Made by a program: the position numbers and the translations under genes. A stretch of 64,000 nucleotides of DNA from an uncultured Candidatus Saccharibacteria bacterium (GTDB lineage Bacteria; Patescibacteriota; Minisyncoccia; Minisyncoccales; JAGMDC01), in assembly GCA_964615205.1 (NCBI GenBank), contig CAZTQA010000001.1, positions 128,510 to 192,509 of the forward strand, given 5' to 3'. A model generated the notes under the pieces. The model had not been told where the DNA came from. It saw nothing but the letters and a program-made list of their open reading frames with translations, and ran no database searches. This document shows, piece after piece, positions 757-57,713 of this stretch (its first letter is position 1; every line of letters starts with the position of its first letter).

Positions 757-761
757 AAAAT

Positions 762-1070: not shown

Positions 1071-1086
1071 AATTAAGTTTTAAATT

Positions 1087-1623: not shown

Positions 1624-1625
1624 TT

Positions 1626-2282: not shown

Positions 2283-2290
2283 TTCTTAAC

Positions 2291-2695
2291 ATGTTAATGC
2301 CCAAAAAAGTAAAACATAGAAAATGGTGCAAAGGACGTTCTAAGGGAATAGAAAACAGAGCTACCTATTTAGCTTTTGGGAGTTATGGATTGAAATCCCT
2401 GGAATCCTGCTGGATCACAGCTCGTCAAATTGAGGCTGGAAGAAGAGCAGTTATAAGGTATCTTAAAAAAGGAGGCAAGCTTTGGATAAGAATATTTCCA
2501 GATAAGCCGGTAACCAAAAAAGGGACAGAAGTCCCCATGGGTGGAGGCAAGGGCAGTGTTGAATATTATGCCTTTCCTATCAGGCCGGGCAGGATTATTT
2601 TTGAACTGGAAGGTGTGAGCGAAGAAATAGCTCGGGAGGCCTTTAGAAAAGCAGCTGACAAAATGCCTGTTAAAACAAAGTTTATAAAACGCTAA
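2291..2695 (+). CDS. rplP: 50S ribosomal protein uL16
   Basis: [11 protein letters not shown]... and PMGGGKGS motifs; operon position. Confidence 0.95.
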
Positions 2696-2697
2696 TT

Positions 2698-2880
2698 ATG
2701 AAAACAAAGGAATTAGAACAAAAAAACAAACCAGAGCTTGAAAATATATTGAAGGAGATTCAGGAAAAGTTGAGGCAATTGCGTTTTAACCTAGCTTCTG
2801 GTAAGGTTAAAAATGTTAGAGAGATTAGAAAAACAAAAAAAGACATTGCTAGAATTTTAACCGTAATGAAACAAAAATAA
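2698..2880 (+). CDS. rpmC: 50S ribosomal protein uL29
   Basis: 60-aa helical protein (LRQLRFNLASGKVKN) between rplP and rpsQ. Confidence 0.9.
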   Translation: MKTKELEQKNKPELENILKEIQEKLRQLRFNLASGKVKNVREIRKTKKDIARILTVMKQK

Positions 2881-2881
2881 T

Positions 2882-3112
2882 ATGAGAAAAAAGCTTCAAG
2901 GAACAATTGTTTCTGCTAAAACACCCCAAACTTTAGTGGTAGAAATAGAAAGGATAAAGGTTCACCCTAAATATAAAAGACGATATAAGTCTCACAAGAG
3001 ATACAAGGCTCACTATGATGAGGGTGAATTTAATGTAGGGGCAAAAGTAATTATTGAGGAATGCAGGCCCATATCTAAAGATAAAAATTGGAAAGTCGTT
3101 AAAAAAATATGA
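2882..3112 (+). CDS. rpsQ: 30S ribosomal protein uS17
   Basis: 76-aa OB-fold-like sequence (GTIVSAKTPQTLVVEIER...HPKYKR); operon position. Confidence 0.9.
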   Translation: MRKKLQGTIVSAKTPQTLVVEIERIKVHPKYKRRYKSHKRYKAHYDEGEFNVGAKVIIEECRPISKDKNWKVVKKI

Positions 3113-3480
3113 TTCAACCACAAACAATGTTAAATATCGCTGACAATACTGGAGCTAAAGTTGTTCAGTGCTTTAAGGTATTAGGCGGAACCAAAAGAAG
3201 ATATGCTCAAATTGGAGATATAGTTGTGGTCTCAGTTAAAAAAGCGGAACCTCGGAAGATAGTCAAAAAACATGACAAAGTGCGAGTAGTAATTGTGAGG
3301 CAGAAAAAAGCTTATCGTCGCTCTGACGGTTCCTATGTTCGTTTTGATGACAATGCCGCCGTAGTTTTGGAAGGAAACACTAAAGAACCCAAAGGCAATC
3401 GTATTTTAGGGCCTGTGGCCAGAGAATTAAAGGAAAAAGGTTTTGACAAGGTAATGGGAATGGCCCAGGATATAGTTTAA
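3109..3480 (+). CDS. rplN: 50S ribosomal protein uL14
   Basis: MIQPQTMLNIADNTGAK... N-terminus typical of uL14; ATGA overlap with rpsQ. Confidence 0.95.
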   Translation: MIQPQTMLNIADNTGAKVVQCFKVLGGTKRRYAQIGDIVVVSVKKAEPRKIVKKHDKVRVVIVRQKKAYRRSDGSYVRFDDNAAVVLEGNTKEPKGNRILGPVARELKEKGFDKVMGMAQDIV

Positions 3481-3482
3481 TT

Positions 3483-3806
3483 ATGAAAATAAAGAAGAAT
3501 GATATAGTTTTAATAATTTCAGGCAAGGACCGGGCCAGAAAAGGCAAGGTTATTCAGGCATTGCCTAAAGAAGAAAAGATTATCGTGGAAGGAATCAATA
3601 TTAAAAAAAAGTCAGTTCGGCCCAAGAAGAGTGGTGAGAAGGGTCAGATTGTAGAAGTGCCGGGTCCTATTTCAGTTTCCAGCGTAAAGATTATTTGTCC
3701 TAAATGCAAAAAACCAGCTCGAGTAGGTTACAAGATAGTAGAATCTGAAAAAAATAAAAAAAAGACAAAAGTTAGAATATGTAAAAAGTGTCAAGCAGAA
3801 ATATGA
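3483..3806 (+). CDS. rplX: 50S ribosomal protein uL24 with C-terminal CxxC...CxxC
   Basis: KOW-like N-terminus (KKNDIVLIISGKDRARKGKV); C72/C75/C100/C103 form a zinc-ribbon pattern. Confidence 0.9.
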   Translation: MKIKKNDIVLIISGKDRARKGKVIQALPKEEKIIVEGINIKKKSVRPKKSGEKGQIVEVPGPISVSSVKIICPKCKKPARVGYKIVESEKNKKKTKVRICKKCQAEI

Positions 3807-4363
3807 TAGTTAAACTTAAAGACAAATACACAAAAGAAGCTGTTCCAGCTATGAAAAAGAAATTTGGCTATAAAAATATTATGGCTGTTCCTAAAATTGA
3901 TAAGGTTGCTATTAATACCAGTTTTGGAAGAATGATAACTGAAAAAACATCAGATGAGAAGAAAAAAATCAAGGAAGCTATCTTAAATGATTTGAGTTTA
4001 ATTACTGGCCAGCGACCAATTTTAACCAAAGCTAAAAAATCCATTTCCAGCTTCAAGCTTCGAGAAGGGATGGAGATAGGAGCCAAGGTAACTTTAAGAA
4101 AAAAGAAAATGTATGATTTTTTAGAAAGGTTGATACATATTACCCTTCCTCGTTCTAGAGATTTTCAGGGTATTAATCCTAAATCAATTGACAAAGAAGG
4201 AAACTTAACTATGTCTATCAAAGAACATATTTCTTTTCCTGAAATTTCTCCAGAAAAAACGAAATTCCTTTTTGGTTTTGAATTAACAGTTGTAACTACA
4301 GCTAAAAACAAAGAACAAGGATTAGAATTGTTTAAATTATTAGGTTTTCCAATGAAAAAATAA
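3803..4363 (+). CDS. rplE: 50S ribosomal protein uL5
   Basis: uL5-like sequence (LKDKY...[14 protein letters not shown]...). The ORF track starts at GTG 3788. I prefer ATG 3803, which overlaps the rplX stop as ATGA. Confidence 0.9.
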
Positions 4364-4364
4364 T

Positions 4365-4550
4365 ATGGCTACAAAATCACAGATAGCAAAATCAAATAAA
4401 AAACCCAAGTATTCCTCCCGAATTACGAGAAGGTGTTTTCGCTGCGGAAGAAAAAGAGGGTATCTAAGAAAGTTTGGATTATGCAGGATATGTTTTCGGG
4501 AATTATCCAATAAAGGTCAGATTCCAGGAGTTAAAAAATCTTCCTGGTAA
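4365..4550 (+). CDS. rpsN: 30S ribosomal protein uS14, zinc-type (61 aa)
   Basis: CFRCGR...CRIC cysteine pairs; the length and position match type-Z S14. Confidence 0.95.
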
Positions 4551-4556
4551 AAACTT

Positions 4557-4943
4557 ATGGATTCAGTAGTTGATATGTTTAATATTATAAAGAATGGACA
4601 AGCCGTACTTAAAGCTACGGTGGATGTTCCTTTTTCCAAATTTAAATATGAGATAGCTAAAATCTTAGAGAGGGAGGGCTATATTGGCAAGATAGAGAAA
4701 AAAAGAAGAAAAAATAAAAACATATTGCAGATTAATTTGAAATACGATAAAAATGTTCCGGCCATTAATGCAATTAAAAAAGTTTCCAAGCCGGGTCAGA
4801 AAATATATCTTCCTTATAAAAAAATTAATAAAGTAAAAGGAGGATTTGGAATGGCTATTATTTCTACTTCCAAAGGGTTGCTTAGCGATAAAGAAACCAG
4901 GAAACAAAAGTTAGGAGGAGAAATAGTAGCTCAAGTTTGGTAA
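4557..4943 (+). CDS. rpsH: 30S ribosomal protein uS8
   Basis: DMFNIIKNGQ... N-terminus and C-terminal GGEIVAQVW; operon position. Confidence 0.95.
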   Translation: MDSVVDMFNIIKNGQAVLKATVDVPFSKFKYEIAKILEREGYIGKIEKKRRKNKNILQINLKYDKNVPAINAIKKVSKPGQKIYLPYKKINKVKGGFGMAIISTSKGLLSDKETRKQKLGGEIVAQVW

Positions 4944-4944
4944 T

Positions 4945-5511
4945 ATGAGTAGAATTGGTAAAAAAAATATTCCTATTCCAGAAGGAGTAGAAGTAAAAAT
5001 AGAGGACAACAATGTAAAAATTAAGGGTCCCAAAGGAGAGCTTGAAAGAGAGATTAGGCCCGAAATCAATGTCGAAATTAAAGATAAAGAGATTAAGGTG
5101 AGTGTTAAAGAGTTAAGCCCCAGAGAAATGAAGAAACGAGCCAAAGAAATAAAGGCTTTTTGGGGTTTGAGTAGAGCTTTAATCGCTAACATGGTCATAG
5201 GCGTTGTTAATGGTTACGAAAAAAAACTACAGATAGAAGGTTTGGGTTACAAAGCTTCTTTAGAGGGCAAGGATTTAGTTTTAAATATTGGTTTCAGCCA
5301 CCCGGTTAAAATTAAAGTTTCGGAAGATTTAGAAGTAAAAGTAGAGAAAAACATTATTAGTGTTTTTGGGATAGACAAAGAAAAAGTAGGGCTTCTGGCT
5401 GCCAAAATAAGGAAAGCTAAACCACCAGAACCATATAAGGGTAAAGGAATACGTTATGTGGGAGAGGTGGTGAGAAAGAAAGAGGGTAAAAAAGCCGTAG
5501 GCGCAGAATAA
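4945..5511 (+). CDS. rplF: 50S ribosomal protein uL6
   Basis: [17 protein letters not shown]... typical uL6 start; operon position. Confidence 0.95.
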
Positions 5512-5516
5512 AAAAA

Positions 5517-5870
5517 ATGGAAATTCAAAGAAAGGAAAAAAGAATAAAAAGACATAAAAGAGTAAGGGGCAGGATATCGGGAACAATCCAGATGCCTCGG
5601 CTTTGTGTTTTTCGATCCAATAAACATATTTACGCTCAATTAATAGATGATGAAAATTCAAAAACTATTTTATCTGCCAATGACATAGAATTGAAAGGAA
5701 AAGCAAAAGAAAAGCAATCTGTCTTAGCTTCAAAGGTGGGAGAATTAATAGCTGAAAAAGCAGAAAAGAAAAAAATTAAAAAAGTTCTTTTTGACAGAGG
5801 AGGATATAAATATCACGGAACAATTAAAGCTCTGGCTGAAGGAGCCAGAAAAAAAGGATTAGAATTTTAA
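5517..5870 (+). CDS. rplR: 50S ribosomal protein uL18
   Basis: [19 protein letters not shown] and [10 protein letters not shown] motifs. Confidence 0.95.
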
Positions 5871-5873
5871 ATT

Positions 5874-6341
5874 ATGTATAAAAAAAGTTTCAGACAAGAG
5901 AAAAAAGACGATTTCGAATCAAAACTACTGGATTTAGCTAGAGTGGACAGAATGACAGCCGGAGGCAGACGGCTCCGTTTTCGGGCTGTCATAATAATAG
6001 GCGACAAAAAAGGAAATGTGGGTTTGGGTGTTGCCAAGGGAAGAGATGTGGCTCAAGCAGTAGAAAAGGCTACCCGTTTGGCAAAGAAAAAATTAATTAA
6101 GGTTCCTATTAAAGAAGGAACAATTCCTTACGAAGTTTTTTCGAAATTTGGAGCGGCAAAAATACTTTTAAGACCTCAAAGAAAGACCAGAGGTTTGGTG
6201 GCAGGAGGAACTGTAAGAGTAATTTGTGAATTAGCTGGAATAAAGAATATTTCTTCCAAAATGCTGGGTAGAACTTCCAGTAAACTCAATAATGCTAAAG
6301 CCACTATCAATGCTTTAGAAAAACTAAGAATGGAAAAATAA
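5874..6341 (+). CDS. rpsE: 30S ribosomal protein uS5
   Basis: RVDRMTAGGRRLRFRAVIIIGD... typical uS5; operon position. Confidence 0.95.
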   Translation: MYKKSFRQEKKDDFESKLLDLARVDRMTAGGRRLRFRAVIIIGDKKGNVGLGVAKGRDVAQAVEKATRLAKKKLIKVPIKEGTIPYEVFSKFGAAKILLRPQRKTRGLVAGGTVRVICELAGIKNISSKMLGRTSSKLNNAKATINALEKLRMEK

Positions 6342-6342
6342 T

Positions 6343-6777
6343 ATGCAGATTCATCAAATTAAACCCAAACATTTAAATAAAGATAGAAAACGTGTTGGCC
6401 GGGGCGGTAAACGCGGGACTTTTTCTGGTAGAGGAGTAAAGGGCCAGAAATCACGTTCAGGCAAGAAAATGCAGCCGGTTATCCGGGAAATAATCAAAAG
6501 ATATCCTAAGCTTAAAGGTTATAGATTTAGTCCGATTTTAAAAACTGGCAAAGCAAGAAAAGTGGTTTTGAATTTGGATGTTCTGGAAAAGAATTTTAAA
6601 GCCGGAGAAAAAGTTACTCCCCGGGTATTGATTGAAAAGAAATTAATTTCTAAAATAAAAGGGAAGATGCCTTTGGTGAAAATCTTGGGAAAAGGGGAAT
6701 TAACCAAGGCCTTAACTATTGAAAAATGTGAATTATCAGAAAAAGCTAAAACTAAAATTGAAAAAATAAAAAAGTAA
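6343..6777 (+). CDS. rplO: 50S ribosomal protein uL15
   Basis: KRVGRGGKRGTFSGRG motif. It starts 1 nt after the rpsE stop, so there is no room for rpmD. Confidence 0.95.
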   Translation: MQIHQIKPKHLNKDRKRVGRGGKRGTFSGRGVKGQKSRSGKKMQPVIREIIKRYPKLKGYRFSPILKTGKARKVVLNLDVLEKNFKAGEKVTPRVLIEKKLISKIKGKMPLVKILGKGELTKALTIEKCELSEKAKTKIEKIKK

Positions 6778-6778
6778 G

Positions 6779-8086
6779 ATGAATTGGTTTACTAAATTAA
6801 TACAAGTTTTTAAAATAAAAGACCTTAGAAAAAAGATTCTATTTGTCTTTTTTATTTTTGCCGTTTTCAGATTAATGGCTAATATTCCGGTTCCTGGGGT
6901 TAATCTTGAAAATCTAAGAATGTTTTTTGAAAGCAATCAAAGTTTAAGTTTGCTAAATCTTTTTACAGGTGGAGCCTTAGAACGATCTTCTATTGTTATG
7001 CTGGGATTAGGCCCATATATTACGTCTGTTATTATTCTTCAATTATTAACAATGATATTTCCCCAATTAGAAAAGATGTATAAAGAAGAAGGAGAAGCTG
7101 GAAGGCAAAAATTTAACCAGTACGGAAGAATCTTGACTGTTCCATTAGCTGCTTTGCAGGGGTTTGCCATGCTGAATTTATTAAGCCGGCAAAATCCTCC
7201 AGTAGTAGAATTTGCTTCACCTCTTTTGTTTTTGTCAGCCATTATTACCATTACAGCTGGAGCTGTTTTTCTGATGTGGTTAGGGGAATTAATTACCGAA
7301 AAAGGTGTTGGCAACGGAGTTTCTTTACTTATTTTTGCCGGTATTATAGCCGGTTTTCCCAGCTCTATTTACCAAAGTTATTTTCAAGTGGAAAGCAATC
7401 CCGCTATGGTTTTCAATTTTCTGGTTTTCTTTGTTCTGGCTCTCTTGATTATTTTTAGTGTTGTCTTAGTGAATGAAGCCAGAAGAAATATTCCGGTTTC
7501 TTATGCTAAGAGGGTAAGAGGCACTAAAATGTATGGCGGGGTTTCTACTTATTTACCCTTAAACCTTAATCCAGCCGGTGTTATTCCTATTATTTTTGCT
7601 TTAGCCATAATGCTTTTCCCAGGAATGATTGCCACTTTCTTAGGAGGCGCAGGGGGATGGATAGGCGCTATTGCTCAAAAAGTTGGTAGCATTTTTAATT
7701 CTCAAGAAAATCTTTTAGCTTACAGCGTTTTCTATTTTCTTTTAGTGGTTTTATTTACTTTTTTCTATACAGCAGTTACTTTTGATCCCAAAGCCATTGC
7801 CACTAATTTGCAGAAAATGGGCGGTTTTGTTCCCGGTATCAGGCCCGGTTCTTCTACCGCTAATTTTTTGAAGTATATTTTAAACAGGGTTCTACTTTTT
7901 GGAGCTCTCTTTCTGGGCTTGATTGCAGTTATGCCTTTTGTTGTGAGTTATTTCACTAAAGTTCAGCAAGGGACTTTTTCTTTCTTGATTGGAGGAACTT
8001 CGTTATTGATTGTTGTTAGTGTAGTTTTGGAAACAATGAAGCAAATTAACTCCCAGCTCCAAATGCGGGAATACGACACATTTTAA
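6779..8086 (+). CDS. secY: preprotein translocase subunit SecY
   Basis: 435-aa polytopic protein with SecY-like segments (GLGPYITSVIILQLL, GELITEKGVGNGVSLLIF); follows rplO. Confidence 0.95.
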   Translation: MNWFTKLIQVFKIKDLRKKILFVFFIFAVFRLMANIPVPGVNLENLRMFFESNQSLSLLNLFTGGALERSSIVMLGLGPYITSVIILQLLTMIFPQLEKMYKEEGEAGRQKFNQYGRILTVPLAALQGFAMLNLLSRQNPPVVEFASPLLFLSAIITITAGAVFLMWLGELITEKGVGNGVSLLIFAGIIAGFPSSIYQSYFQVESNPAMVFNFLVFFVLALLIIFSVVLVNEARRNIPVSYAKRVRGTKMYGGVSTYLPLNLNPAGVIPIIFALAIMLFPGMIATFLGGAGGWIGAIAQKVGSIFNSQENLLAYSVFYFLLVVLFTFFYTAVTFDPKAIATNLQKMGGFVPGIRPGSSTANFLKYILNRVLLFGALFLGLIAVMPFVVSYFTKVQQGTFSFLIGGTSLLIVVSVVLETMKQINSQLQMREYDTF

Positions 8087-8094
8087 TAAAAATT

Positions 8095-8757
8095 ATGTCT
8101 AAACCATTATTAATAATTATTTTTGGACCGCCTGGTTCCGGCAAAGGTACCCAGGCTAAATTAATTGCTAAAGAGCTTGGATTAGAATATTTTGGAAGTG
8201 GGGTGGCTCTTCGTGAGCGTCAAAAAGTGGGCGACTTTACAGGAAAAAAACTTTCAGAAGTTATGAATCGCGGGAATTGGGTTTCTGAATCTACGGTTAT
8301 TAAATTATGGATGGATAATTTGGAGGAATGCAAAAAGAAAAGAAATTTTAAGGGTTGGGTTTATGACGGTGGTCCCCGAAAGACATTAGAGGCGCAACTT
8401 TTGGATGTAGCCTTAGAATGGTATGAATGGGATAAAAGAGTAAAAGTTCTCTATATTTATATTTCAAGTAAAGAATCTTTTAATCGTCTAACTAAAAGAA
8501 GACAATGTAAAAAATGCGGGGAACTTATTCCTTGGGTTGGAGAATTTAAGAAACTTAAGAAATGTCATAAGTGCGGGGGTGAATTAGTTTACAGACCTGA
8601 TGATAAACCAGAAGCTATAAGAAAACGTTTAGGAGAATTCAAAAAACATACCTTGCCAGTGATAAATCATTTTAAAAAACAAGATAGAATTATAAAAATA
8701 GATGGAGAGCAAGACATTGAAGGTGTTTTCAAGGATATTTTGAAAGTTATAAAATAG
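8095..8757 (+). CDS. adk: adenylate kinase (zinc-lid type)
   Basis: P-loop GPPGSGKGTQ; lid with CKKCG...CHKCG; position after secY. Confidence 0.9.
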   Translation: MSKPLLIIIFGPPGSGKGTQAKLIAKELGLEYFGSGVALRERQKVGDFTGKKLSEVMNRGNWVSESTVIKLWMDNLEECKKKRNFKGWVYDGGPRKTLEAQLLDVALEWYEWDKRVKVLYIYISSKESFNRLTKRRQCKKCGELIPWVGEFKKLKKCHKCGGELVYRPDDKPEAIRKRLGEFKKHTLPVINHFKKQDRIIKIDGEQDIEGVFKDILKVIK

Positions 8758-8763
8758 TGATTT

Positions 8764-9330
8764 ATGAATAATAAAATTATTTGCGTTGTGGGAATGACTG
8801 GTTCTGGCAAAAGTGAAGCGGCAGATGAATTATCCAAACAAGGTTTTATATATTTAAGATTCGGGCAGATTACGCTTAATAAAATTAACGAGAGGGGACT
8901 AAAACCAACTGCAGAAAATGAAAGAAAAATTAGAGAAGAGATTAGGGAAAAATATGGTATGGCTGCTTTTGCTACTTTAAATATTTTTAAAATAGATAAA
9001 TTACTCAAGAAATTTAACGTAGTGGTTGATGGACTCTATAGCTGGTCAGAATATAAAGTTTTAAAAGATAAATATGGTGAAAAATTGATAACCTTAGCGA
9101 TTTATACTCCACCAGAAATAAGATATACTAGATTGGAGAAGAGGATCGTTGAAGACGATAAAGCTCAACGTTTTAGAATTTTTACAAGAAAAGAAGCAAA
9201 AGCGCGAGACTATGCTGAAATTGAAAACATTGAGAAAGGTGGACCAATTGCTATGGCTGACTTTACGATTATCAATACCGGAACAAAAAAGGAACTAAAA
9301 GAAAAAGTCAGAGATATTTTAAAAAACTAA
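8764..9330 (+). CDS. small P-loop nucleotide kinase (dephospho-CoA-kinase/UPF0200-like), function uncertain
   Basis: Walker A GMTGSGKS at the N-terminus; 188 aa; the overall layout resembles small NMP/dephospho-CoA kinases by eye. Confidence 0.5.
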   Translation: MNNKIICVVGMTGSGKSEAADELSKQGFIYLRFGQITLNKINERGLKPTAENERKIREEIREKYGMAAFATLNIFKIDKLLKKFNVVVDGLYSWSEYKVLKDKYGEKLITLAIYTPPEIRYTRLEKRIVEDDKAQRFRIFTRKEAKARDYAEIENIEKGGPIAMADFTIINTGTKKELKEKVRDILKN

Positions 9331-9334
9331 AGTT

Positions 9335-10078
9335 ATGATTTCTATTAAAACGGAGCAAGAAATTAAAATAATGGCTGAAGGAGGAAAAATTTTAGCCCAA
9401 GTAATGAAAGAATTGATGTTGATGGTTAAATCGGGCATAACTACCAAGGAATTAGATAAGGTCGCAGAAGACCTTATTTTTAAATTTGGAACAGAGCCAG
9501 CCTTTAAAGGCTATGATGGTTTTCCCAATACTTTATGTGTTTCTCTTAATGAGACTATTGTTCACGGAGTTCCTTCAGATCGGGAATTAAGGGAAGGGGA
9601 TATTATTTCTCTGGATTTGGGTTTGAAACATAAAGGATATTTTGCAGATATGGCTGTAACTCTTCCCGTGAGCAATGTTTCTCCGGAAGCCCAAAGAATA
9701 ATCAGAATTACCAAAAAAGCTCTTAAAAGAGGAATTAAAAAAGTTAAGCCGGGAAATACTTTTGGCGACATTAGCAATACCATTCAAAGATTCGCCGAAT
9801 CGCAGAAATACCAGATTATTCGGGATTTATGCGGTCATGGTATTGGTAAAGAATTGCATGAAGAGCCGCAGATTTTAAATTATGGAAAGAGAGGTAAGGG
9901 GCAGAAACTAAAGCCAGGAATGGTTTTTTGTTTAGAGCCTATGCTGGCAATCGGAGACTGGAGAATTATTAAATCAGAGGATGGTTATGGCTTTGAAACC
10001 AGAGACGGCTCTTTATCTGCCCATTTTGAACACACTGTGGCTGTCACCGACCGCGGTTGCCAGGTGTTAACAGAATAA
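9335..10078 (+). CDS. map: methionine aminopeptidase type I
   Basis: Pita-bread fold motifs (GDIISLDLG, CGHGIG, FCLEPM, HFEHTV); position after adk. Confidence 0.9.
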   Translation: MISIKTEQEIKIMAEGGKILAQVMKELMLMVKSGITTKELDKVAEDLIFKFGTEPAFKGYDGFPNTLCVSLNETIVHGVPSDRELREGDIISLDLGLKHKGYFADMAVTLPVSNVSPEAQRIIRITKKALKRGIKKVKPGNTFGDISNTIQRFAESQKYQIIRDLCGHGIGKELHEEPQILNYGKRGKGQKLKPGMVFCLEPMLAIGDWRIIKSEDGYGFETRDGSLSAHFEHTVAVTDRGCQVLTE

Positions 10079-16752: not shown

Positions 16753-18142
16753 TAATATCTTAAAACCCATAATTTTTCTCTTATGCTTTTTGGCATTAAT
16801 TTTGCCAATTTTTTATTTGTCAGCAAAAGAAGATTTGGAAGAAACTTGCCAGATAGAAAATATTGAAAAGAAAGAAAAAGAATTATCTAAAAAAGATTAC
16901 GAAGCTTTTTTAAAGAAATGCGAGACCTACTTTGTTGAAAAAAGCCAGGAAATAGAGAAGGATATTAATAAAACAGAAGCTGAAAAAGAGGACTTACAAA
17001 ATACTATTTCTAGCTTGAGAAAAAAGATTCAGAACTTAAATTATAAAATAAATGAAAGCAACTTGATTATTAAGGATCTTGGTCTTCAGATTGAAGATAC
17101 TGAATTATCCATAGACGAAACTACTTTGGAGATAGAAGATTTAGAGGAAAGATTAACAGAAATATTGAGAACCATTTACAAGGGAGATCAAAAGTCTTTG
17201 ATAGAGATTTTTATTTCTGAAGAAGAAATATCTGATTTCTTTGAGGATTTAGTAGCCTTAGAAATACTTAATGCCGAAAACCAGAAAATACTTGAAGACA
17301 TTAAGGATCTAAAATCTTATTTAGAGAATCAGAAAGTTTCTTTAGATGGAGAAAAAGAAGATAGAGAAAATACCCTAGCTGTTTATGCCCTGCAAAAGCA
17401 AGAAAATGATACGACCAAAAAAGAACAGGAATATCTTTTAAAACTAACCGAAAAAGAATATCAGAAATATCTTGCAGAGAAGGAGAAAGTAGACAAGACA
17501 GCGGCTGAAATAAGAGCTAGAATTTTTGAATTAGTAGGCATTACAGAAGCTCCTACTTTTGGAGAGGCATATGAAATTGCCAAATACGTTGAAAGTGTAA
17601 CCAATGTGCGTCCCGCTTTCCTTTTAGCCATTTTGACCCAAGAGTCAAACATTGGTAAAAATGTAGGCCAATGCTATTTAAAAGATACCAAAACTGGTGA
17701 CGGCATATATATTAAAAGCGGAAATACAGCTCCCAAAACTATGAGTCCTAAAAATATTCCTATTTTTGTAGAAATCACAAAAGAATTGGGAAGAGATCCA
17801 TTTGCCACACCGGTTTCCTGTTGCATGTATTATCAGGGTGAACCTTATGGTTGGGGAGGAGCTATGGGCCCGGCCCAGTTTATTCCCTCTACATGGAATC
17901 TCTATAGAGACAAAATAAAAGCCGTAACTGGCAGTCCGGCTGATCCTTGGAATATTAGAGATGCTTTCCTGGCATCAGGTATTTACTTAAAGGAATTGGG
18001 CGCTGCTAAGAATGAGTTTAGTGCTGCTATGCATTATTTCTCTGGCACTACTTGGACAAGTTACGAAGAGTTTTATGGCCGTTCTGTTTTAAACATGGCA
18101 GCGGGCTATGAAAAAGATATTGCTAAGATTGAATCTGAGTAA
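16739..18142 (+). CDS. secreted/anchored coiled-coil protein with C-terminal lytic transglycosylase (SLT_2/MltB-like) domain
   Basis: Signal/anchor MKANNNILKPIIFLLCFLALIL, a long heptad-rich middle, and C-terminal LTQESNIG...GAMGPAQFIPSTW. The start is moved from the track's 16664, whose poly-K extension reads through the rplY tail. Confidence 0.7.
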   Translation: MKANNNILKPIIFLLCFLALILPIFYLSAKEDLEETCQIENIEKKEKELSKKDYEAFLKKCETYFVEKSQEIEKDINKTEAEKEDLQNTISSLRKKIQNLNYKINESNLIIKDLGLQIEDTELSIDETTLEIEDLEERLTEILRTIYKGDQKSLIEIFISEEEISDFFEDLVALEILNAENQKILEDIKDLKSYLENQKVSLDGEKEDRENTLAVYALQKQENDTTKKEQEYLLKLTEKEYQKYLAEKEKVDKTAAEIRARIFELVGITEAPTFGEAYEIAKYVESVTNVRPAFLLAILTQESNIGKNVGQCYLKDTKTGDGIYIKSGNTAPKTMSPKNIPIFVEITKELGRDPFATPVSCCMYYQGEPYGWGGAMGPAQFIPSTWNLYRDKIKAVTGSPADPWNIRDAFLASGIYLKELGAAKNEFSAAMHYFSGTTWTSYEEFYGRSVLNMAAGYEKDIAKIESE

Positions 18143-18884
18143 GTTTCTTAACGACCGGTTCCATATGTCCGTCTAATATTTTCTCAATATTGTGCCATGA
18201 CTTTTTTATACGGTGATCAGTAATTCTATCTTGAGGAAAGTTATAGGTTCTGATTTTTTCCGCTCTCATCGCCCAGCCAATCTGGGATTTTCTTTCCCCG
18301 CCTATTTTTTCCTGTTCTTCTATTTGTTTTTTTTCCAATAAGCGCGCTTCTAAAACACTTAGAGCGTTTTCTTTGTTTTCTAACTGGTTTCTTTCTGTTT
18401 GGCAGGTAACTGTAATCCCTGTAGGAATATGAGTTACCCTGACAGCTGTTTCCCTTCGGTTAACATACTGTCCACCTGCACCAGAAGAACGGTAAAAATC
18501 AATTTTCAATTCATCAGGCCTTATATTAATCTGGGCTTTCTTTGACTTAGGGAGGACAGCTACTGTAGCTGTAGAAGTGTGAATTCTTCCTCCCTTTTCT
18601 GTTTTGGGAATTCTTTGAACTCTGTGGACACCGGCTTCGTATTTCAATTTATCCCAGGCCTCTGGACTTTTTACTTCAAAGATAACGCTTTTGTAACCTC
18701 CTAATTCGGTTCTTTGAGAATCCAAGATTTTCTGCTTCCATTCTTTATTTTCAGAATACCTGCTGTACATCCTAAATAAATCAGCAGCAAAAAGGGCGGC
18801 TTCTTCGCCACCAGTGCCTGCCCGGATTTCTATAATCGTAGAAGAAATCTCCGGCTCTATATTTGTAGTTTGATTTTCCTCCAT
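18123..18884 (-). CDS. prfA: peptide chain release factor 1-like, lacking N-terminal domain 1
   Basis: GGQ motif (SSGAGGQYVN), RF1-type tripeptide region RIPKTEKGGRIHTS, EIRAGTGGEEAALFAADLFRMYSRY. It is only 253 aa and starts where E. coli RF1 is at about residue 100. Confidence 0.8.
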   Translation of the reverse strand: MEENQTTNIEPEISSTIIEIRAGTGGEEAALFAADLFRMYSRYSENKEWKQKILDSQRTELGGYKSVIFEVKSPEAWDKLKYEAGVHRVQRIPKTEKGGRIHTSTATVAVLPKSKKAQINIRPDELKIDFYRSSGAGGQYVNRRETAVRVTHIPTGITVTCQTERNQLENKENALSVLEARLLEKKQIEEQEKIGGERKSQIGWAMRAEKIRTYNFPQDRITDHRIKKSWHNIEKILDGHMEPVVKKLTQIQS

Positions 18885-19114: not shown

Positions 19115-19142
19115 ATATTAACAAAATCCTTTGAAAAATCAA
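19115..19142 (-). promoter_or_regulatory. putative rpmE-prfA promoter (TTGATT-16-TAATAT, 7 nt before ATG)
   Basis: Read on the minus strand: agggTTGATTtttcaaaggattttgtTAATATaaaatatATG. Confidence 0.55.
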
Positions 19143-19168: not shown

Positions 19169-19197
19169 TTGATTAATTTTAGAGGCAGTGATATATT
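19169..19197 (+). promoter_or_regulatory. putative rpsB promoter (TTGATT-17-TATATT, 9 nt before ATG)
   Basis: Hexamers at 19169-19174 and 19192-19197; divergent from the rpmE promoter. Confidence 0.5.
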
Positions 19198-19206
19198 ATA
19201 AGTATT

Positions 19207-20404: not shown

Positions 20405-20746
20405 ATGACCACTCTAATTTTATCTATAACTTTGCTCGTTAGCTTGGCTGGAATGATAATAATTATTTACCGCAAGCTTCCTCTGCTTATAGAATTACCT
20501 CTTGATAGTAGGGAGGGCGTTCTTTTGAGGGTCAAAGAAACTATTAAAGAGAAGGATTGGTCCAAGGTTTTTAATACTCGTAATTTTTTACGCAAGACAT
20601 TAATGCGCATTCGTATTTTAAATCTAAAGTCTGAAAATATGATTAACAAAAAATTAGAGGAATGGAGACATAGAGAAATCGAGAGACCTTCCCACGAAGA
20701 TAATTACTGGAGTAAGTTAAAAGATCTCACTCAAAAGAAGAAATAG
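20405..20746 (+). CDS. hypothetical single-pass membrane protein
   Basis: N-terminal hydrophobic helix followed by a charged tail; no recognisable motif. Confidence 0.5.
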   Translation: MTTLILSITLLVSLAGMIIIIYRKLPLLIELPLDSREGVLLRVKETIKEKDWSKVFNTRNFLRKTLMRIRILNLKSENMINKKLEEWRHREIERPSHEDNYWSKLKDLTQKKK

Positions 20747-20820
20747 GCCAGGGTAGCTCAATCGGCAGAGCAGCGCTTTTGTAAAGCGAAGGTTTGGGGG
20801 TTCGATTCCTCTCCCTGGCT
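20747..20820 (+). tRNA. tRNA-Thr (anticodon UGU)
   Basis: Manual cloverleaf: acceptor GCCAGGG/CCCTGGC, D arm GCTC-AATCGGCA-GAGC, anticodon arm GCGCT-TTTGTAA-AGCGA, T arm GGGGG-TTCGATT-CCTCT. No encoded CCA. Confidence 0.8.
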
Positions 20821-20835
20821 TGAGTTTAGCAGTTA

Positions 20836-20864: not shown

Positions 20865-20916
20865 GAAAATACGAATATAAAGGAAAGTTCCTTGAGAATT
20901 TATAATTGGTTTTTTC

Positions 20917-20929
20917 GAGTTGTCCCGAC
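20917..20929 (+). other. 5' half of the pre-16S processing stem
   Basis: gagttgtcccgac is perfectly complementary to gtcgggacaactc at 22512-22524. Confidence 0.75.
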
Positions 20930-20935
20930 TCATTT

Positions 20936-22424
<1,489 letters not shown>

Positions 22425-22511
22425 TAAAAAAGTTGTCGACAATGGTTGAAGTTTGGAATTCGAACTTTAACTATTCAGGTATTGGTCTCAGAACCTCAAA
22501 TCGAGACTATT

Positions 22512-22524
22512 GTCGGGACAACTC
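22512..22524 (+). other. 3' half of the pre-16S processing stem
   Basis: Complement of 20917-20929. It lies ~88 nt past the 16S 3' end and 18 nt before ATG 22542. Confidence 0.75.
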
Positions 22525-22541
22525 AAAGAAACCACTTTCTT

Positions 22542-24599
22542 ATGGAGGATTTGGAAAACAATTTAATAAAACTTAAGAGCCTTTCTAAACTTTTAAGAGA
22601 AAGCTGGGAATTGTATAAAACAAGGATCCGAACTCTGTTGACGATTGCTTTTTTGCCAATTGTTTTTTCATTATTTTTTTCTTTTTTGCTTCACTCTTTA
22701 GAAAAAACTAATTTACAATACTCAATTTTATTTTCTATAGTAGAGGTAATTTCTCTTTTAGTTTCTTTTTTTCTTTTGTTATGGATTACTCCTTCTCTAA
22801 TTTTAAGCATTAAAAACGATACTGACGCAGTAGATTCTTTAAAAGAGGGTTTAAGTTTTGTCGTTTCCTATTTCTGGCTTTATTTTCTAGTTAACATCAT
22901 TGTTTTGGGCGGAAGTTTGCTTTTAATAATTCCAGGAATATTATTTTCAATCTGGTTTGGTTTATCTGTTTATATTTTAGTTTTTGAACAAGAAAAAGGA
23001 TTCAAAGCTTTATTCGCCAGCAAAGAACTTGTTTCCGGTAATTTTATTAAAGTTTTATGGAGATTTTTAGCTTTTGGTTTAGTCATTTTCTTGTTTTTTT
23101 TATTTCTTAGTATTTTTCTTGTTTTTTTATTTCAAAGTTATGATTTTGTTGGTGATTTGATAGGTTATCTATTTAATTGGTTAGCTTTTCCTTTATTAGT
23201 TGTTTTTGGAATTTTACTTTACAAAAATTTAAGAGAACTAAAGAAAGAAGTTATATATCCAGAACCTTCAGTTGGAAGAAAAATAAAGTATATGATCCCA
23301 GGCTTTTTGGGAATACTGGTGGTTATGGCAACGGTGACCTTTGTTTCTTTAAATGTTTTTTGGGGAAGAGATGAACCGCCTTTTGATGATAGTGATTTGT
23401 GGTTATCTAAGGTAGAGATTAATCAAGAAGACAATGCTTTTTATTATTTCCAGGATATTGAGGAAAAAATTTACATTCCTTCCGATAAAGAGGAGAGAGA
23501 ATTATTCCGAGATATGGCTAACGGCAAAGTCTGGGATAGCGATTTTGCCAAAGATTTAATAGACAGAAACCAGGAAGCTTTTGAATATTTAGACAAAGCC
23601 CTTGCTTGCCCGGTTTATCAACAGCCATCATTAATGAATCCAGAAGAAATTTCAGGTTATACAATTTATCCTGCTCATGGTTCTATTCGAGAGATTGCCA
23701 GATTAACTTCTATAAAATCTGCTTATTTATTAGAACAAAATAAACCAGAAGAAGCTTTTAATGAAGCAATGAAAATATTAGAAATAACTTTTTTATTGAG
23801 AACAGCGCCCAATCCTACTATAATTGATTCTTTAATGTCTCTGGGCGTTAATCAGGTTGGATTGAATAGAATAAAATTAATTTTAGAAGAAGCTGATTTT
23901 TCTTCGCTAACATTAAAAAAATATATAGATAGACTAGATAACTTTAAAGAAAATAAAGATTGGGTAGAAAACAGTCTTAAAAGAGAATATATTGAATGGG
24001 TCAATAGTCAAGAGATGAGTTTGCAAAGTGATTTACCGCCATTTTCAGAGTATGCAGAACCTCCGTTAAGCGAAAGAATGCTTTCAGAAAAAAATCTAGC
24101 TAAATTTTATCTTTACAAGCCTAATAAAACTAAAAGAATCTTTGCTGATAATTATCAAAGAATGGTTAGAAACGCTGAGCAAGATTATTACAAGGATATA
24201 GAAGTCTTTGAGTATCAACGTTTTTGTCCAGATTCTGTAATAAAAATGCCCTTTACAGAAAATTTAGTAGGCAGAGTACTTCTTGATATGAGTGTAGTTT
24301 CTTTAGATGGATGCTTTGCAAAAAGTTGCTTGGATAATTTTAATTTAGATGCTATACAGGTTTTGATGGCCTTAAAGGCTTACCAGATTGACAATGGAGA
24401 ATTGCCGGATTCTTTAGAAAAACTTGTTCCAGAATACCTTTCGGAAGTGCCAAAAGATCCTTTTGACGGCCAACTAATTAGATTTTCTTTGGAAAAGAAA
24501 ATCATTTATTCAGTCGGTCAAGATCTTATAGATTCTGGCGGGAGCCAAGGAGATGATTTAGACTCAATGTCTGATCCTACTATTAAAATCGAGTTTTGA
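22542..24599 (+). CDS. large polytopic membrane protein with helical-repeat ectodomain and pseudopilin (GspG)-like C-terminus
   Basis: About 7 hydrophobic helices in the first ~300 aa. The C-terminus ALKAYQIDNGELPDSLEKLVPEYLSEVPKDPFDG...SVGQDLIDSGG resembles the T2SS protein G core. The track's TTG start at 22446 lies in the rRNA trailer, so I prefer ATG 22542. Confidence 0.6.
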   Translation: MEDLENNLIKLKSLSKLLRESWELYKTRIRTLLTIAFLPIVFSLFFSFLLHSLEKTNLQYSILFSIVEVISLLVSFFLLLWITPSLILSIKNDTDAVDSLKEGLSFVVSYFWLYFLVNIIVLGGSLLLIIPGILFSIWFGLSVYILVFEQEKGFKALFASKELVSGNFIKVLWRFLAFGLVIFLFFLFLSIFLVFLFQSYDFVGDLIGYLFNWLAFPLLVVFGILLYKNLRELKKEVIYPEPSVGRKIKYMIPGFLGILVVMATVTFVSLNVFWGRDEPPFDDSDLWLSKVEINQEDNAFYYFQDIEEKIYIPSDKEERELFRDMANGKVWDSDFAKDLIDRNQEAFEYLDKALACPVYQQPSLMNPEEISGYTIYPAHGSIREIARLTSIKSAYLLEQNKPEEAFNEAMKILEITFLLRTAPNPTIIDSLMSLGVNQVGLNRIKLILEEADFSSLTLKKYIDRLDNFKENKDWVENSLKREYIEWVNSQEMSLQSDLPPFSEYAEPPLSERMLSEKNLAKFYLYKPNKTKRIFADNYQRMVRNAEQDYYKDIEVFEYQRFCPDSVIKMPFTENLVGRVLLDMSVVSLDGCFAKSCLDNFNLDAIQVLMALKAYQIDNGELPDSLEKLVPEYLSEVPKDPFDGQLIRFSLEKKIIYSVGQDLIDSGGSQGDDLDSMSDPTIKIEF

Positions 24600-24649: not shown

Positions 24650-24672
24650 TTTAATTTTGTTAGAATAATAAG

Positions 24673-35428: not shown

Positions 35429-35447
35429 ATTTCATTTTAACTCTTTA

Positions 35448-35497: not shown

Positions 35498-35707
35498 ATG
35501 GCTATGGAAGTAGGCATTCTCGGAGATTATCTGCGAGATATAAAAGTAGATGTTGCAGAGCACGGTGGATCAAAACAAGTAACAGCGCTTATACAATTTG
35601 AGGGTGACAGAGAAGAAAAGGTTGATTTTACAATCAACCCCCCCGCTTTGTTTGGACATTTTTCATGTGGAAACAATGGGCGAGACATGGACATGCAATT
35701 CTCTTGA
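35498..35707 (+). CDS. hypothetical 69-aa protein (island cassette A)
   Basis: ORF with a strong SD, visibly higher G+C than its neighbours, and an internal C7 run at 35638-35644; no recognisable family. Confidence 0.55.
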   Translation: MAMEVGILGDYLRDIKVDVAEHGGSKQVTALIQFEGDREEKVDFTINPPALFGHFSCGNNGRDMDMQFS

Positions 35708-37502: not shown

Positions 37503-37706
37503 ATGGTAAAAATAGATGAAAGGATAGATTGTCCAGCGTGCAAGAAAGATAAGGCGGTATTAAGCACAGCAATACGTAGTCCTGATGAAGATGGACCTGT
37601 TGATCCAGAAGGAGGTCCAAACGACTTTATGCAAGAGATGCTTCACTTGATGTATTTTTGTAGATCTTGCAAGAAGATAACCATTGTTACTATACATGGG
37701 CTATAA
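37503..37706 (+). CDS. hypothetical 67-aa zinc-ribbon protein (island cassette D)
   Basis: CPACKK ... CRSCKK cysteine pairs with an acidic P/D/E-rich linker; SD-like AGAGGAAA upstream. Confidence 0.55.
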   Translation: MVKIDERIDCPACKKDKAVLSTAIRSPDEDGPVDPEGGPNDFMQEMLHLMYFCRSCKKITIVTIHGL

Positions 37707-37794: not shown

Positions 37795-37823
37795 TTGACA
37801 TAAAGATAAAAAGATATTATAAT
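37795..37823 (+). promoter_or_regulatory. consensus sigma-70-type promoter of cassette E (TTGACA-17-TATAAT)
   Basis: Both hexamers are perfect with a 17-nt spacer. GAGGTGAT (37828-37835) lies 7 nt before ATG 37843. Confidence 0.7.
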
Positions 37824-37842
37824 TATTGAGGTGATGTAAAAG

Positions 37843-38241
37843 ATGGCTTTTGGTAAAGAAAAGGCGAGTTACGAAGATACAGCAACCGATCTAGAGATTC
37901 AAAAAGCAAGAAGGCAAATTAAGGAGGAGACAGGGATAAGCGTTTCCATACAAAAGGGAGCCTACAAAGGAATAATTCCCATAGCCGAAGTCTATGATCC
38001 GAAGAAAAAAATTGATGTCGAGGAATTGACAAGGATATTAGAACACGAATTTCTTGGAGTGAGAATTAGTGTGAGACGCGATAAGCATGACGTTATCTGT
38101 GAGGCAGTAATAAGGGCGGATACATGTGGAGAATTCGTGTTATTAGCCCGTGATTTTTCTGCCGGTAAAGTAGCAGTGAAACAAGAATTCTCACGACTGG
38201 TAAAGGGAAAGATTCCCTTTCCGGTCATAATACCCAAATGA
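37843..38241 (+). CDS. hypothetical 132-aa protein (island cassette E; paralog of F)
   Basis: Aligns by eye with F: TGISVSI/TGVKVNI, YKG, EELTRILEHEFL/EEIVGITKKEFL, VICEAV/IICAVE, QEFSRLVKGK/AEFLRLCGKK. Confidence 0.65.
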   Translation: MAFGKEKASYEDTATDLEIQKARRQIKEETGISVSIQKGAYKGIIPIAEVYDPKKKIDVEELTRILEHEFLGVRISVRRDKHDVICEAVIRADTCGEFVLLARDFSAGKVAVKQEFSRLVKGKIPFPVIIPK

Positions 38242-38754: not shown

Positions 38755-38788
38755 GCTTGGGGATATTTAGAGCCAAGCCATTTTTTTT
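38755..38788 (+). terminator. intrinsic terminator T5 (stem related to T4)
   Basis: GCTTGG-12 nt-CCAAGC followed by cattttttttg. Its T-run overlaps the murA -35. Confidence 0.75.
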
Positions 38789-38815
38789 GACAAAAAGGAA
38801 GTTTTGAGCTAAGAT
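38787..38815 (+). promoter_or_regulatory. putative murA promoter (TTGACA-17-gcTAAGAT, 10 nt before ATG)
   Basis: Hexamers at 38787-38792 and 38810-38815. Confidence 0.55.
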
Positions 38816-40094: not shown

Positions 40095-41102
40095 ATGTTA
40101 GTAAGAAAAATCGGCATAGATTTAGGTACCTGTAATTCATTGGTTTTTTTACCGGGCAAAGGAATTGTTTTACACGAGCCATCAGTGGTGGCGGTTTCTT
40201 TGGATGAAAATAAAATTTTAGCTGTAGGTCAGGAAGCCAAAGATATGACCGGAAGAACGCCGGATACAATAAAAGTTTATCGTCCCTTAAAAGACGGAGT
40301 TATTGCCGATTTCAGAGTTACTCAAGCCATGATATCTTATTTTATCAGAAAAACAGCTGGAACCTTAAAGTTTTTTAAGCCTGAATTAATGGTTTCTGTT
40401 CCGGCTGGCGTTAGTTCAACAGAACGGAGGGCGGTTATTGAGGCGGGTACAAACGCTGGAGCTAAAGCAGTTTATGTTGCCAAAGAACCTATTTTAGCTG
40501 CTATTGGTGCTGGAATACCTATCAATTCTTGCTCCGGTAATTTAATTTTAGATATTGGAGGAGGAACTTCTGAAGTAGCCACTATCTCCTTAGGCGGAAT
40601 TGTGACAGCTTCTTCCATCAGAGTAGCCGGAGATAAAATGAATACAGCTATTTCTGACTATATTAAAAAGAAATATAATTTAGCTGTAGGCGAGCAAACA
40701 GCTGAAGAGATAAAAATAAAAATAGGAACAGCTCTTCCTGAAAAGCAAGCTAAATATTTAGAAATAAGGGGCAGGGATTTGGTTCTTGGTCTTCCTCGAG
40801 TAATAAAAATTTCTTCAAATGAAGTCTGCGGAGCTATTAGTGAGGTTTTGGAAGAAATACTTCAGGTGGTAAAATTTGTATTAAGAGATACTCCTCCTGA
40901 AATTTCAGCTGATATTATGGACAAAGGGATGATTGTTTCTGGCGGAGGGGCTCTTTTAAGAAACATTAATGAATTAATTACCAAAAGAATTGGGGTGCCT
41001 TGTTTTATTGCTGAGGATTCTTTGCGATGCGTAGCTAAAGGAACAGGGGTTGTACTTGAGAACTTAGACGTTTACAAAAAAAGCATAATGTCTAAAAAAT
41101 GA
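40095..41102 (+). CDS. mreB: rod-shape/actin-like protein MreB (copy 1)
   Basis: IGIDLGTCNS..., DIGGGTSEVA, GGGALLRN motifs. Confidence 0.9.
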   Translation: MLVRKIGIDLGTCNSLVFLPGKGIVLHEPSVVAVSLDENKILAVGQEAKDMTGRTPDTIKVYRPLKDGVIADFRVTQAMISYFIRKTAGTLKFFKPELMVSVPAGVSSTERRAVIEAGTNAGAKAVYVAKEPILAAIGAGIPINSCSGNLILDIGGGTSEVATISLGGIVTASSIRVAGDKMNTAISDYIKKKYNLAVGEQTAEEIKIKIGTALPEKQAKYLEIRGRDLVLGLPRVIKISSNEVCGAISEVLEEILQVVKFVLRDTPPEISADIMDKGMIVSGGGALLRNINELITKRIGVPCFIAEDSLRCVAKGTGVVLENLDVYKKSIMSKK

Positions 41103-42016: not shown

Positions 42017-42046
42017 AAAAAATAATTTTAGTTATAATGTAATTAT

Positions 42047-43523: not shown

Positions 43524-43552
43524 TTGATTATTTTTAGTTTTTGAGATAAGAT
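43524..43552 (+). promoter_or_regulatory. putative proS promoter (TTGATT-17-TAAGAT), -10 ends 6 nt before ATG
   Basis: Hexamers at 43524-43529 and 43547-43552; ATG at 43559. Confidence 0.6.
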
Positions 43553-45845: not shown

Positions 45846-45870
45846 AATTTTTAATTTTTAAAATATACCT

Positions 45871-53750: not shown

Positions 53751-53786
53751 CTTTTAATTTTTCACTTTTAATTTTAAACTTGAAAC

Positions 53787-54748: not shown

Positions 54749-54749
54749 T

Positions 54750-57699: not shown

Positions 57700-57713
57700 A
57701 AATTAGCTAAAAT

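Follow-up and report, generated by a model that had tools for sequence, protein, structure and literature searches.

Absence of the CCUCC anti-Shine-Dalgarno tail from the 16S rRNA of a member of the Parcubacteria, and candidate routes of start-codon selection

[quoted passage not shown] This absence is confirmed. The SD/anti-SD interaction is the textbook route by which bacterial ribosomes find start codons, and lineages without the rRNA half of this pairing show what else suffices for start selection. The organism is very probably a CPR bacterium of the Parcubacteria/Paceibacteria (Minisyncoccia), with a small genome of 35% G+C, in which the anti-SD has been lost, most likely after its mRNAs had given up SD pairing. 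Loss of the anti-SD is already known, from other phyla since 2012 and from this clade since 2022. Consequently, the finding is confirmatory and its novelty is low, as the loss has already been documented for this lineage.

The 16S rRNA gene and its 3' end

The 16S rRNA gene occupies positions 20935–22424 of the window (features lie on the forward strand unless the reverse strand is named) and matches Rfam RF00177 over model positions 1–1533 of 1533 with 1428 bits, above the gathering score. This covariance search found one rrs copy in the 64-kb window, and CPR genomes as a rule have a single rrn copy. No match to 23S (LSU) rRNA was found across the whole 64-kb window, the DNA 3' of the 16S gene included. 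The 3' end of the gene was read from a separate covariance re-run on 22150–22560, in which every tail column carries an asterisk as its posterior symbol. In this alignment, the tail GGAUCAUUACAUUC stands against the consensus GGAUCACCUCCUUU, and the anti-SD core site (22417–22421) reads UUACA opposite CCUCC, with four of the five bases altered, each from C to U or A. The flanking elements are preserved. Helix 45 (22387–22411, GCACGCGUAGC-GGAA-GCUGUGCGUG) is intact, with the conserved GGAA loop and every pair standard, as is helix 44. The element GGAUCA (22411–22416), which to our knowledge is conserved 5' of the anti-SD in all bacteria, is kept, and UUC (22422–22424) makes up the final three model-aligned bases; the covariance model thereby predicts that the mature 16S rRNA ends at 22424. 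The position aligned to 1535–1539 of E. coli 16S rRNA is without CCUCC, which is the criterion for a non-anti-SD genome used by Lim et al. 2012 (PMC3457768). The original prediction had read the tail as lacking a CCUCC anti-SD and proposed an Rfam SSU alignment of the 3' end as a check; the alignment, an independent contig and the relatives described below all bear this reading out.

The precursor of this rRNA offers no alternative location for the motif. The 5' strand of the pre-16S processing stem (20901–20945, core GAGTTGTCCCGAC at 20918–20930) pairs with a 3' strand at 22496–22545 (core GTCGGGACAACTC at 22514–22526), giving a duplex energy of -38.3 kcal/mol with a perfect core of 13 bp and bounding a trailer of ~90 nt. 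As predicted from the sequence, no CCTCC precedes the stem: a scan of 22405–22545 found none, and the sole sequence that comes close, CCTCA at 22494, stands just 5' of the stem. Since the stem bounds the precursor, there is no room for a hidden anti-SD, and the candidate that one lies further downstream in the pre-rRNA was rejected, CCUCA beside the stem being all that was found. Directly upstream of the 16S gene lies tRNA-Thr(UGU) (20746–20821), and the order rpsB-tsf-orf-tRNA-16S is conserved in relatives.

Independent contigs were sought through exact matches to the protein of the adjacent EF-Ts gene; six were found, each assembled independently, in samples of ENA, Logan and JGI. One of these (L123, from the JGI metagenome 3300028169) spans the entire 16S gene and ~400 nt beyond, and is 99.89% identical to the window over 2801 nt, with tail (GGATCATTACATTC) and trailer both unchanged. 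Because an independent assembly has the identical tail, assembly error, which had been raised as a point to be checked, is rejected. The broader reading, in which the gene is a decaying rrs pseudogene or arose by misassembly or as a chimera, and a functional 16S gene with a normal CCUCC lies elsewhere, can hardly be entertained and is already largely refuted: metagenome-derived rRNA genes are often mis-assembled and this is the sole rrs copy visible within the window, but the gene scores across the full model with helices 44 and 45 intact, is flanked by the processing stem with its 13-bp core, has the identical tail and trailer in the assembly of another sample, and shares the missing CCUCC with every close relative found.

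Lineage of the organism and spread of the loss

The window has a G+C content of 34.6% and shows two CPR hallmarks, as uL30 is missing and uL1 is missing from its canonical place after uL11. No gene for uL30 is present between those for S5 (5874–6341) and L15 (6343–6777). At 53547–55253, secE-nusG-rplK (uL11) has directly after it a gene for a dCMP deaminase by Pfam match, and not rplA. An L1 domain was found in no window protein scanned; rplJ and rplL likewise lie outside the window, so rplA could sit elsewhere in the genome. Species representatives in GTDB were scanned with a 19-mer from the 16S 3' domain, giving 120 loci with 114 scorable 3' ends. The best full-length 16S matches are a Nealsonbacteria genome (L043, 80.4%), a metagenome-assembled genome (L040, 79.6%) and Minisyncoccus archaeiphilus (L064, 78.6%). 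These matches, together with the absence of uL30, place the organism in the Parcubacteria/Paceibacteria (Minisyncoccia) part of the Patescibacteria. There is no close sequenced relative among the GTDB loci of the 19-mer scan; the organism is probably an undescribed member of the anti-SD-less Parcubacteria subgroup, as the nearest fetched genome is only ~80% identical in 16S.

Among the 114 scorable 3' ends, all of which share the signature 19-mer, 87 carry CCTCC, 5 carry TCTCC (Gracilibacteria and Peribacteria) and 22 carry neither. Of these last, one (L096) seems to reflect an insertion and not a tail. The other 21 all have the GCAC/GCAU-type helix 45 of the window, and every named taxon among them belongs to the Patescibacteria, some records being labelled just 'bacterium'. 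The 16S genes nearest to that of the window have identities of 78–82%. The tails of the best-matching relatives read GGATCACTACATTT (L043), GGATCATAACATTC (L040) and GGATCATTTATTTA (M. archaeiphilus). A metagenome scan with ribosomal protein S2 added about 30 relatives with S2 identities of 52–66%, several of which keep the synteny from rpsB to the 16S gene, with tails such as GGATCACTTATTTT (L127–129) and GGATCAATTAATTT (L143); two loci (L149 and L139) were left out of the tail comparison, as their aberrant 16S 3' ends are probably insertions. In the anti-SD-less relatives, GGAUCA is kept or slightly altered and the sequence 3' of it is A/U-rich and lineage-variable. This pattern fits relaxed selection combined with an AT mutational bias, and it speaks against the tail having acquired a new conserved function. 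Judged from these tails, anti-SD loss is common to all closest relatives found and is thus lineage-wide.

This lineage-wide loss agrees with earlier work. Tsurumaki et al. 2022 (RNA 28:1041, PMC9297842) describe, in the passages that deal with it, loss of the anti-SD in a Parcubacteria subgroup that largely lacks uL1. The features given there are shared by the window: a CPR/Parcubacteria-type 16S rRNA, CCTCCT missing at the 3' end, absence of uL30 and no uL1 after uL11. There is no essential difference from the subgroup as described in those passages, where uL1 status in the present case refers to its place after uL11 in 64 kb. The relevant passages of the same paper report the loss of the motif and do not propose a mechanism of initiation.

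Loss of the anti-SD was first noticed in Carsonella. Lim et al. 2012 (PMC3457768) listed 15 'non-anti-SD genomes' in which C-to-U/A decay of the same kind is seen and an SD signal is lacking, and Nikolaeva et al. 2021 (bioRxiv 755876) tied the loss to genome reduction and to ribosomal proteins being lost. The genomes covered by these two studies are those of insect symbionts of the Carsonella, Sulcia, Blattabacterium and Hodgkinia type, haemotropic Mycoplasma and some Flavobacteria. They resemble the present lineage in having mainly C-to-U/A decay, tails that vary within a clade and no upstream SD signal, as well as reduced genomes and lost ribosomal proteins. In contrast, the present case concerns another phylum and a large environmental radiation, while the earlier cases concern a few host-restricted species. 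The one cultured relative, M. archaeiphilus, is a parasite of an archaeon (PMC12281837) and not an insect endosymbiont.

In the 16S gene of the window, the 515F primer region also contains a mismatch, and amplicon surveys probably under-sample the organism for this reason.

Signals upstream of genes and around start codons

The mRNA side was probed with 72 genes that begin with ATG, taken from the map of densely packed ORFs, with starts assigned by a simple first-ATG rule. No excess of SD signal was found upstream of these 72 genes, as neither motif counts nor duplex energies are better than controls. At -20 to -4, the observed counts of SD 4-mers compare with intragenic expectations as 4 vs 4.98 for GGAG, 5 vs 4.6 for GAGG and 7 vs 7.25 for AGGA. 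The mean energy of duplexes with a canonical tail is -3.13 upstream, -2.91 for shuffled sequence and -4.33 for intragenic sequence. The pipeline is able to detect SD use, since a Campylobacterota positive control from the same GTDB scan gives an SD fraction of 0.36 against a background of 0.01 (36% vs 1%). The corresponding values are 0.12 vs 0.11 in the relatives and 0.11 vs 0.13 in the GTDB anti-SD-less loci. The anti-SD-bearing Patescibacteria also show little enrichment (0.16 vs 0.11), which suggests, without proving it, that disuse of the SD came before decay of the anti-SD. The original prediction held that the genes here lack an SD motif and called for RBS-motif statistics; run on the 64-kb window, these statistics give no SD enrichment, and the claim holds in the statistical sense that motifs occur overall at the background rate in the 72 window genes. 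The upstream contexts quoted with it are present at the genes for S19 (762), S3 (1626) and adk (8095). Gene callers that depend on RBS motifs will misplace starts in genomes of this kind.

A few non-housekeeping genes at 35.5–38.2 kb have good, well-spaced SD-like motifs (35498, 37503 and 37843). Tested as a possible foreign island, this region has a GC content of 0.348, compared with 0.33–0.35 elsewhere, and the hypothetical proteins encoded at 35.5–38.2 kb have no significant match in Pfam, PHROG or NCBIfam.

The starts themselves show other features. The mean minimum free energy of 40-nt segments is -1.7 kcal/mol at the ATG vs about -5.0 at +100 (p = 8e-12), and the GC content is 0.23 vs 0.38 at the same positions. 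The start context is A at -3 in 67% of genes, A at -2 in 65% and U at -1 in 68%, and A makes up 46–58% at -11 to -5. Extra ATGs are depleted both upstream of starts (20 observed vs 32.2 expected, P = 0.007) and downstream of them (13 observed vs 27.9 expected, P = 0.001). Part of the AAU-AUG context is supplied by the TAA stop of the preceding gene, and A(-3) has a frequency of 0.80 at tight junctions, compared with 0.47 at other starts.

These features recall the Bacteroidetes. In Flavobacterium johnsoniae and other Bacteroidetes, Baez et al. 2019 (PMC6847099) reported a preference for A(-3) and local depletion of AUG; reduced structure at the start region was found in all three bacteria examined there. 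Shared with the Bacteroidetes (Baez et al. 2019; Jha et al. 2021, PMC7797042) are the absence of SD motifs, a Kozak-like context rich in A with A at -3, little structure at starts and local AUG depletion. The two differ in that the Bacteroidetes keep a canonical but sequestered anti-SD, which is gone in this organism, and in that U at -1 is prominent here, partly from TAA-U-AUG junctions. Initiation may thus work as in the Bacteroidetes without being of that type, because the retained, sequestered anti-SD is missing. It could still be argued that the system is of the Bacteroidetes type, with ribosomal proteins sequestering the anti-SD, so that SD motifs are ignored, and with a tail that is irrelevant or autoregulatory. 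The mRNA side, which matches that of F. johnsoniae, speaks for this reading, and the low SD enrichment in anti-SD-bearing Patescibacteria gives a hint that a stage of this kind preceded the loss. However, the canonical anti-SD whose retention defines that type is absent; this reading may fit the ancestral state and is improbable for the present ribosome.

Comparably improbable is that the mature 16S rRNA extends beyond the end of the model and that its additional A/U-rich stretch (UCUAAAAAAG..., in relatives U-rich) forms loose pairs with A-rich leaders, an idea put forward for Flavobacteria by Lim et al. 2012 (PMC3457768). The relatives are indeed U-rich after GGAUCA, and the regions upstream of genes are rich in A, as given above. 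In the window, however, the extension is A-rich, not U-rich, and therefore unable to pair with A-rich leaders. Duplexes with a 21-nt extended native tail offer no advantage upstream over controls, with energies of -3.68 upstream, -3.56 in intragenic sequence and -3.61 in shuffled sequence, where the shuffles keep base composition and a purely compositional effect is possible.

A co-evolved SD/anti-SD pair of new specificity, in which an mRNA motif (UGUAAU, AAUGUAAU, or UAAU next to the AUG with AUUA) pairs with the new tail, is less probable again. The common UAAU-AUG context could formally pair with AUUA of the tail (22416–22419). However, the regions upstream of genes show no excess of complementarity to the native tail: with the tail used in 14-nt and 21-nt versions, duplexes with -25 to -1 do not surpass those of intragenic or shuffled controls (-2.78 upstream, -2.87 intragenic, -3.01 shuffled), which rules out a replacement pair to the native tail at this sample size. 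Furthermore, UAAU is largely the preceding TAA stop, as the distribution of A(-3) indicates, and the tails of relatives vary (CUUAUUUU, AAUUAAUU, CUACAUUU, AUAACAUU, AUUUAUUU), most of them without AUUA; on these two grounds, pairing of UAAU-AUG with AUUA was rejected. As the tails vary but the start contexts are alike, there is no covariation between them. A pairing with zero spacing to the AUG would also clash with the place that the 16S 3' end takes on the 30S platform, which is established structural knowledge.

Candidate routes of start-codon selection

The preferred reading is a tail that has decayed after SD pairing fell out of use, with 30S or 70S ribosomes selecting start codons without rRNA–mRNA pairing. 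Three routes are proposed. First, AU-rich, unstructured starts with A(-3)A(-2)U(-1)AUG and no rival AUGs nearby would be recognized in a Bacteroidetes-like manner. Second, within operons, an AUG lying a few nucleotides from the previous stop (TAA-U-AUG or AUGA) would be used by terminating ribosomes that re-initiate. Third, in operon-first genes, a -10 box 5–10 nt before the AUG would yield a leaderless or near-leaderless mRNA that is bound directly via its 5' AUG.

The second route draws on the spacing of genes. In the S10/spc ribosomal-protein operon from L2 to map (1–10078), the stop-to-start junctions range from -4 to +8 nt, with one exception of 16 nt before L22. The 19 junctions from L2 to map include four TAA-T-ATG, three TAA-TT-ATG, two ATGA overlaps and one TAA-G-ATG (10/19), and across the window 23 of 64 same-strand junctions overlap or have a gap of ≤2 nt. 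It had been stated that 9 of 17 junctions in the spc region are TAA-T/TT-ATG or ATGA; the count of 9 stands, and the denominator lies between 17 and 19 depending on where the boundaries are drawn. The accompanying suggestion of termination–reinitiation coupling is compatible with the tight junctions, going by their spacing, which permits reinitiation within operons as a necessary condition only. Ribosomal operons with tight junctions are common in SD-using bacteria too, and such junctions are consequently no proof of reinitiation. Moreover, coupling is unable to serve operon-first genes.

Leaderless genes are classically recognized by computation from a -10 box that keeps a constant, small distance to the ATG. 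This signature was sought in 29 operon-first genes with an upstream spacer of ≥20 nt. The motif TANAAT lies 5–8 nt before the ATG in 7 of the 29, where column-preserving shuffles predict 1.43 (p = 0.0004); these shuffles replaced a uniform null because AT content climbs toward the ATG, and the signal survived the change. The same test in relatives gives 10 observed vs 3.1 expected (p = 0.001).

Several promoter-like sites illustrate the arrangement. Upstream of rpsB, TTGATT-17-TATATT (19169–19199) ends 9 nt before the ATG at 19207, making this gene a candidate for a leaderless or near-leaderless mRNA, and on the reverse strand a -10-like TAATAT (19115–19120) stands 7 nt before the rpmE ATG at 19107, with TTGATT 16 nt upstream. 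A -10 box stands 6 nt before the ATG in four putative cases: alaS (TAGAAT at 24661–24666 within TAGACA-17-TAGAAT, ATG 24673), proS (TAAGAT at 43547–43552 within TTGATT-17-TAAGAT, ATG 43559), a deoC-like gene (TATAAT at 56207–56212, ATG 56219) and gatC (TAAAAT at 45859–45864, ATG 45871). The gene for a PEGA-domain protein on the reverse strand has TTGATT-16-TAAAAT with the -10 box (35434–35439) 5 nt before the ATG at 35428. The sites of murA (TTGACA-17-TAAGAT, 38787–38815) and frr (TTGTGA-16-TATAAT, 42011–42038) end 10 nt before the ATG at 38826 and 8 nt before the ATG at 42047, respectively. For rpsB and rpmE, the promoter-at-ATG layout recurs in relatives despite diverged intergenic DNA; for example, two relatives (L144 and L139) have TTGAAT-17-TATAAT ending 9 nt before the rpmE ATG.

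Of the full -35/-10 promoter-like sites, 10 of 21 in the GTDB anti-SD-less loci (p = 1e-4) and 3 of 38 in the anti-SD-bearing Patescibacteria end 5–12 nt from the ATG, a distance window that was picked after the histograms had been seen. Within the window alone, the full-promoter test gives p = 0.02–0.06. These promoters are consensus matches in AT-rich DNA, and the replication comes in part from homologous rpsB/rpmE promoters. An unrelated control set is also enriched for the promoter-at-ATG layout and is heavily pseudo-replicated around one gene: it consists of S2 loci of ~40% identity that are many copies from one marine lineage at the same gene, and it does not serve as a clean negative control.

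A -10 box 5–10 nt before the AUG leads to the expectation of a leaderless or near-leaderless mRNA, and the evidence for such mRNAs at many operon-first genes is suggestive only. Leaderless-rich bacteria such as Mycobacterium and Deinococcus keep a functional anti-SD and use the SD for many genes. The likeness of the window to these bacteria and to the haloarchaea, seen here from sequence alone, is the -10 box placed at a constant, short spacing from operon-first ATGs. It is proposed tentatively, as a possibility somewhat more doubtful than probable, that the anti-SD-less Parcubacteria combine leaderless operon-first mRNAs with downstream reinitiation, so that no internal ribosome-binding site is needed, and that this combination goes with anti-SD loss. 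The signature that would split anti-SD-less from anti-SD-bearing Patescibacteria is based on a small sample of promoter-like sites (21 vs 38). In the literature searched, no paper was found that ties CPR bacteria to leaderless translation, and the promoter-at-ATG signature may be new. Since the cultured M. archaeiphilus has a similar tail, the choice between leaderless and coupled initiation, as well as the link to uL1 loss, is now open to experiment.

Shine-Dalgarno use and 16S variants in other genomes

The enrichment of Shine-Dalgarno (SD) motifs upstream of genes is close to nil in Patescibacteria whose 16S rRNA carries the canonical CCUCC anti-SD, at 0.16 relative to a background of 0.11 (n=207; loci L002-L117, which include Magasanikbacteria, Moranbacteria, Falkowbacteria, Uhrbacteria and others). 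The identical pipeline returns 0.36 for Campylobacterota, the positive control, against a background of 0.01. Consequently, disuse of the SD may be both older and more widespread in the phylum than loss of the anti-SD.

Variation at the 16S 3' end was also observed elsewhere. In Peribacteria and Gracilibacteria (L026, L044, L045, L094 and L103), the 16S ends in GGACUAUCUCCUUA or GGAUUAUCUCCUUA. The UCUCC in these tails differs from the anti-SD core at a single base and resembles the TCTC-type variants (TCTCA, TCTCT) known in Flavobacteria (Lim et al. 2012, PMC3457768). The 16S genes of two relatives, L139 (8083-10165) and L149 (9163-10602), have an aberrant 3' region, and their model-aligned 3' ends contain no recognisable helix 45 and tail. 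As the L139 gene spans 2083 nt, it probably carries an insertion.

SD-bearing hypothetical genes

A perfect sigma-70 consensus promoter (TTGACA-17-TATAAT, 37795-37823) lies upstream of a hypothetical gene at 37843-38241, promoter and gene together occupying 37795-38241. This gene is preceded by GAGGTGAT, an 8-nt perfect SD located 7 nt 5' of the ATG, whose pairing with the canonical tail amounts to -13 kcal/mol; this SD is found in a genome whose ribosome lacks the anti-SD. Two small hypothetical neighbours (35498-35707 and 37503-37706) bear well-spaced GGAGG and AGAGGA motifs. The GC content here is within the normal range, and searches of the encoded proteins against Pfam, PHROG and NCBIfam gave no significant match. 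These SD-bearing genes at 35.5-38.2 kb could be recently acquired DNA, or their motifs could have arisen by chance.

Surroundings of the 16S gene and other genes of note

At 21418-21439, the 515F universal-primer site, the 16S gene reads GTGCCAGAAGCGTCGGTAATAC in place of the consensus GTGCCAGCAGCCGCGGTAATAC; because of these mismatches, amplicon surveys would probably miss the organism. Neither tRNAs nor a 23S gene come next on the 3' side of the 16S gene (22425-24599), in contrast to the metagenome relative L127 and the Nealsonbacteria genome L043, in which tRNAs or 23S do follow. Instead, a gene for a 685-aa membrane-like protein begins at 22542, 16 nt past the processing-stem core. The rRNA genes of this organism appear to be unlinked.

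Release factor 1 (18123-18884, minus strand) is short, at 253 aa. Its alignment to the RF1 model, which has 347 positions, runs from 105 to 340, and the protein thus lacks the N-terminal domain of ~100 residues. The gatB gene (56866-58349, plus strand) is either genuinely split or disrupted, as its two ORFs, 14 nt apart, match model positions ~4-285 (56866-57699) and ~287-480 (57714-58349). Prolyl-tRNA synthetase (43559-44800, plus strand; 413 aa) matches the bacterial model at 1-236 and again in its C-terminal part, and appears from this alignment to lack the central insertion, which is the editing domain. Two full-length MreB paralogues (40095-41102 and 44793-45845, plus strand) lie less than 5 kb apart in an apparently small genome.
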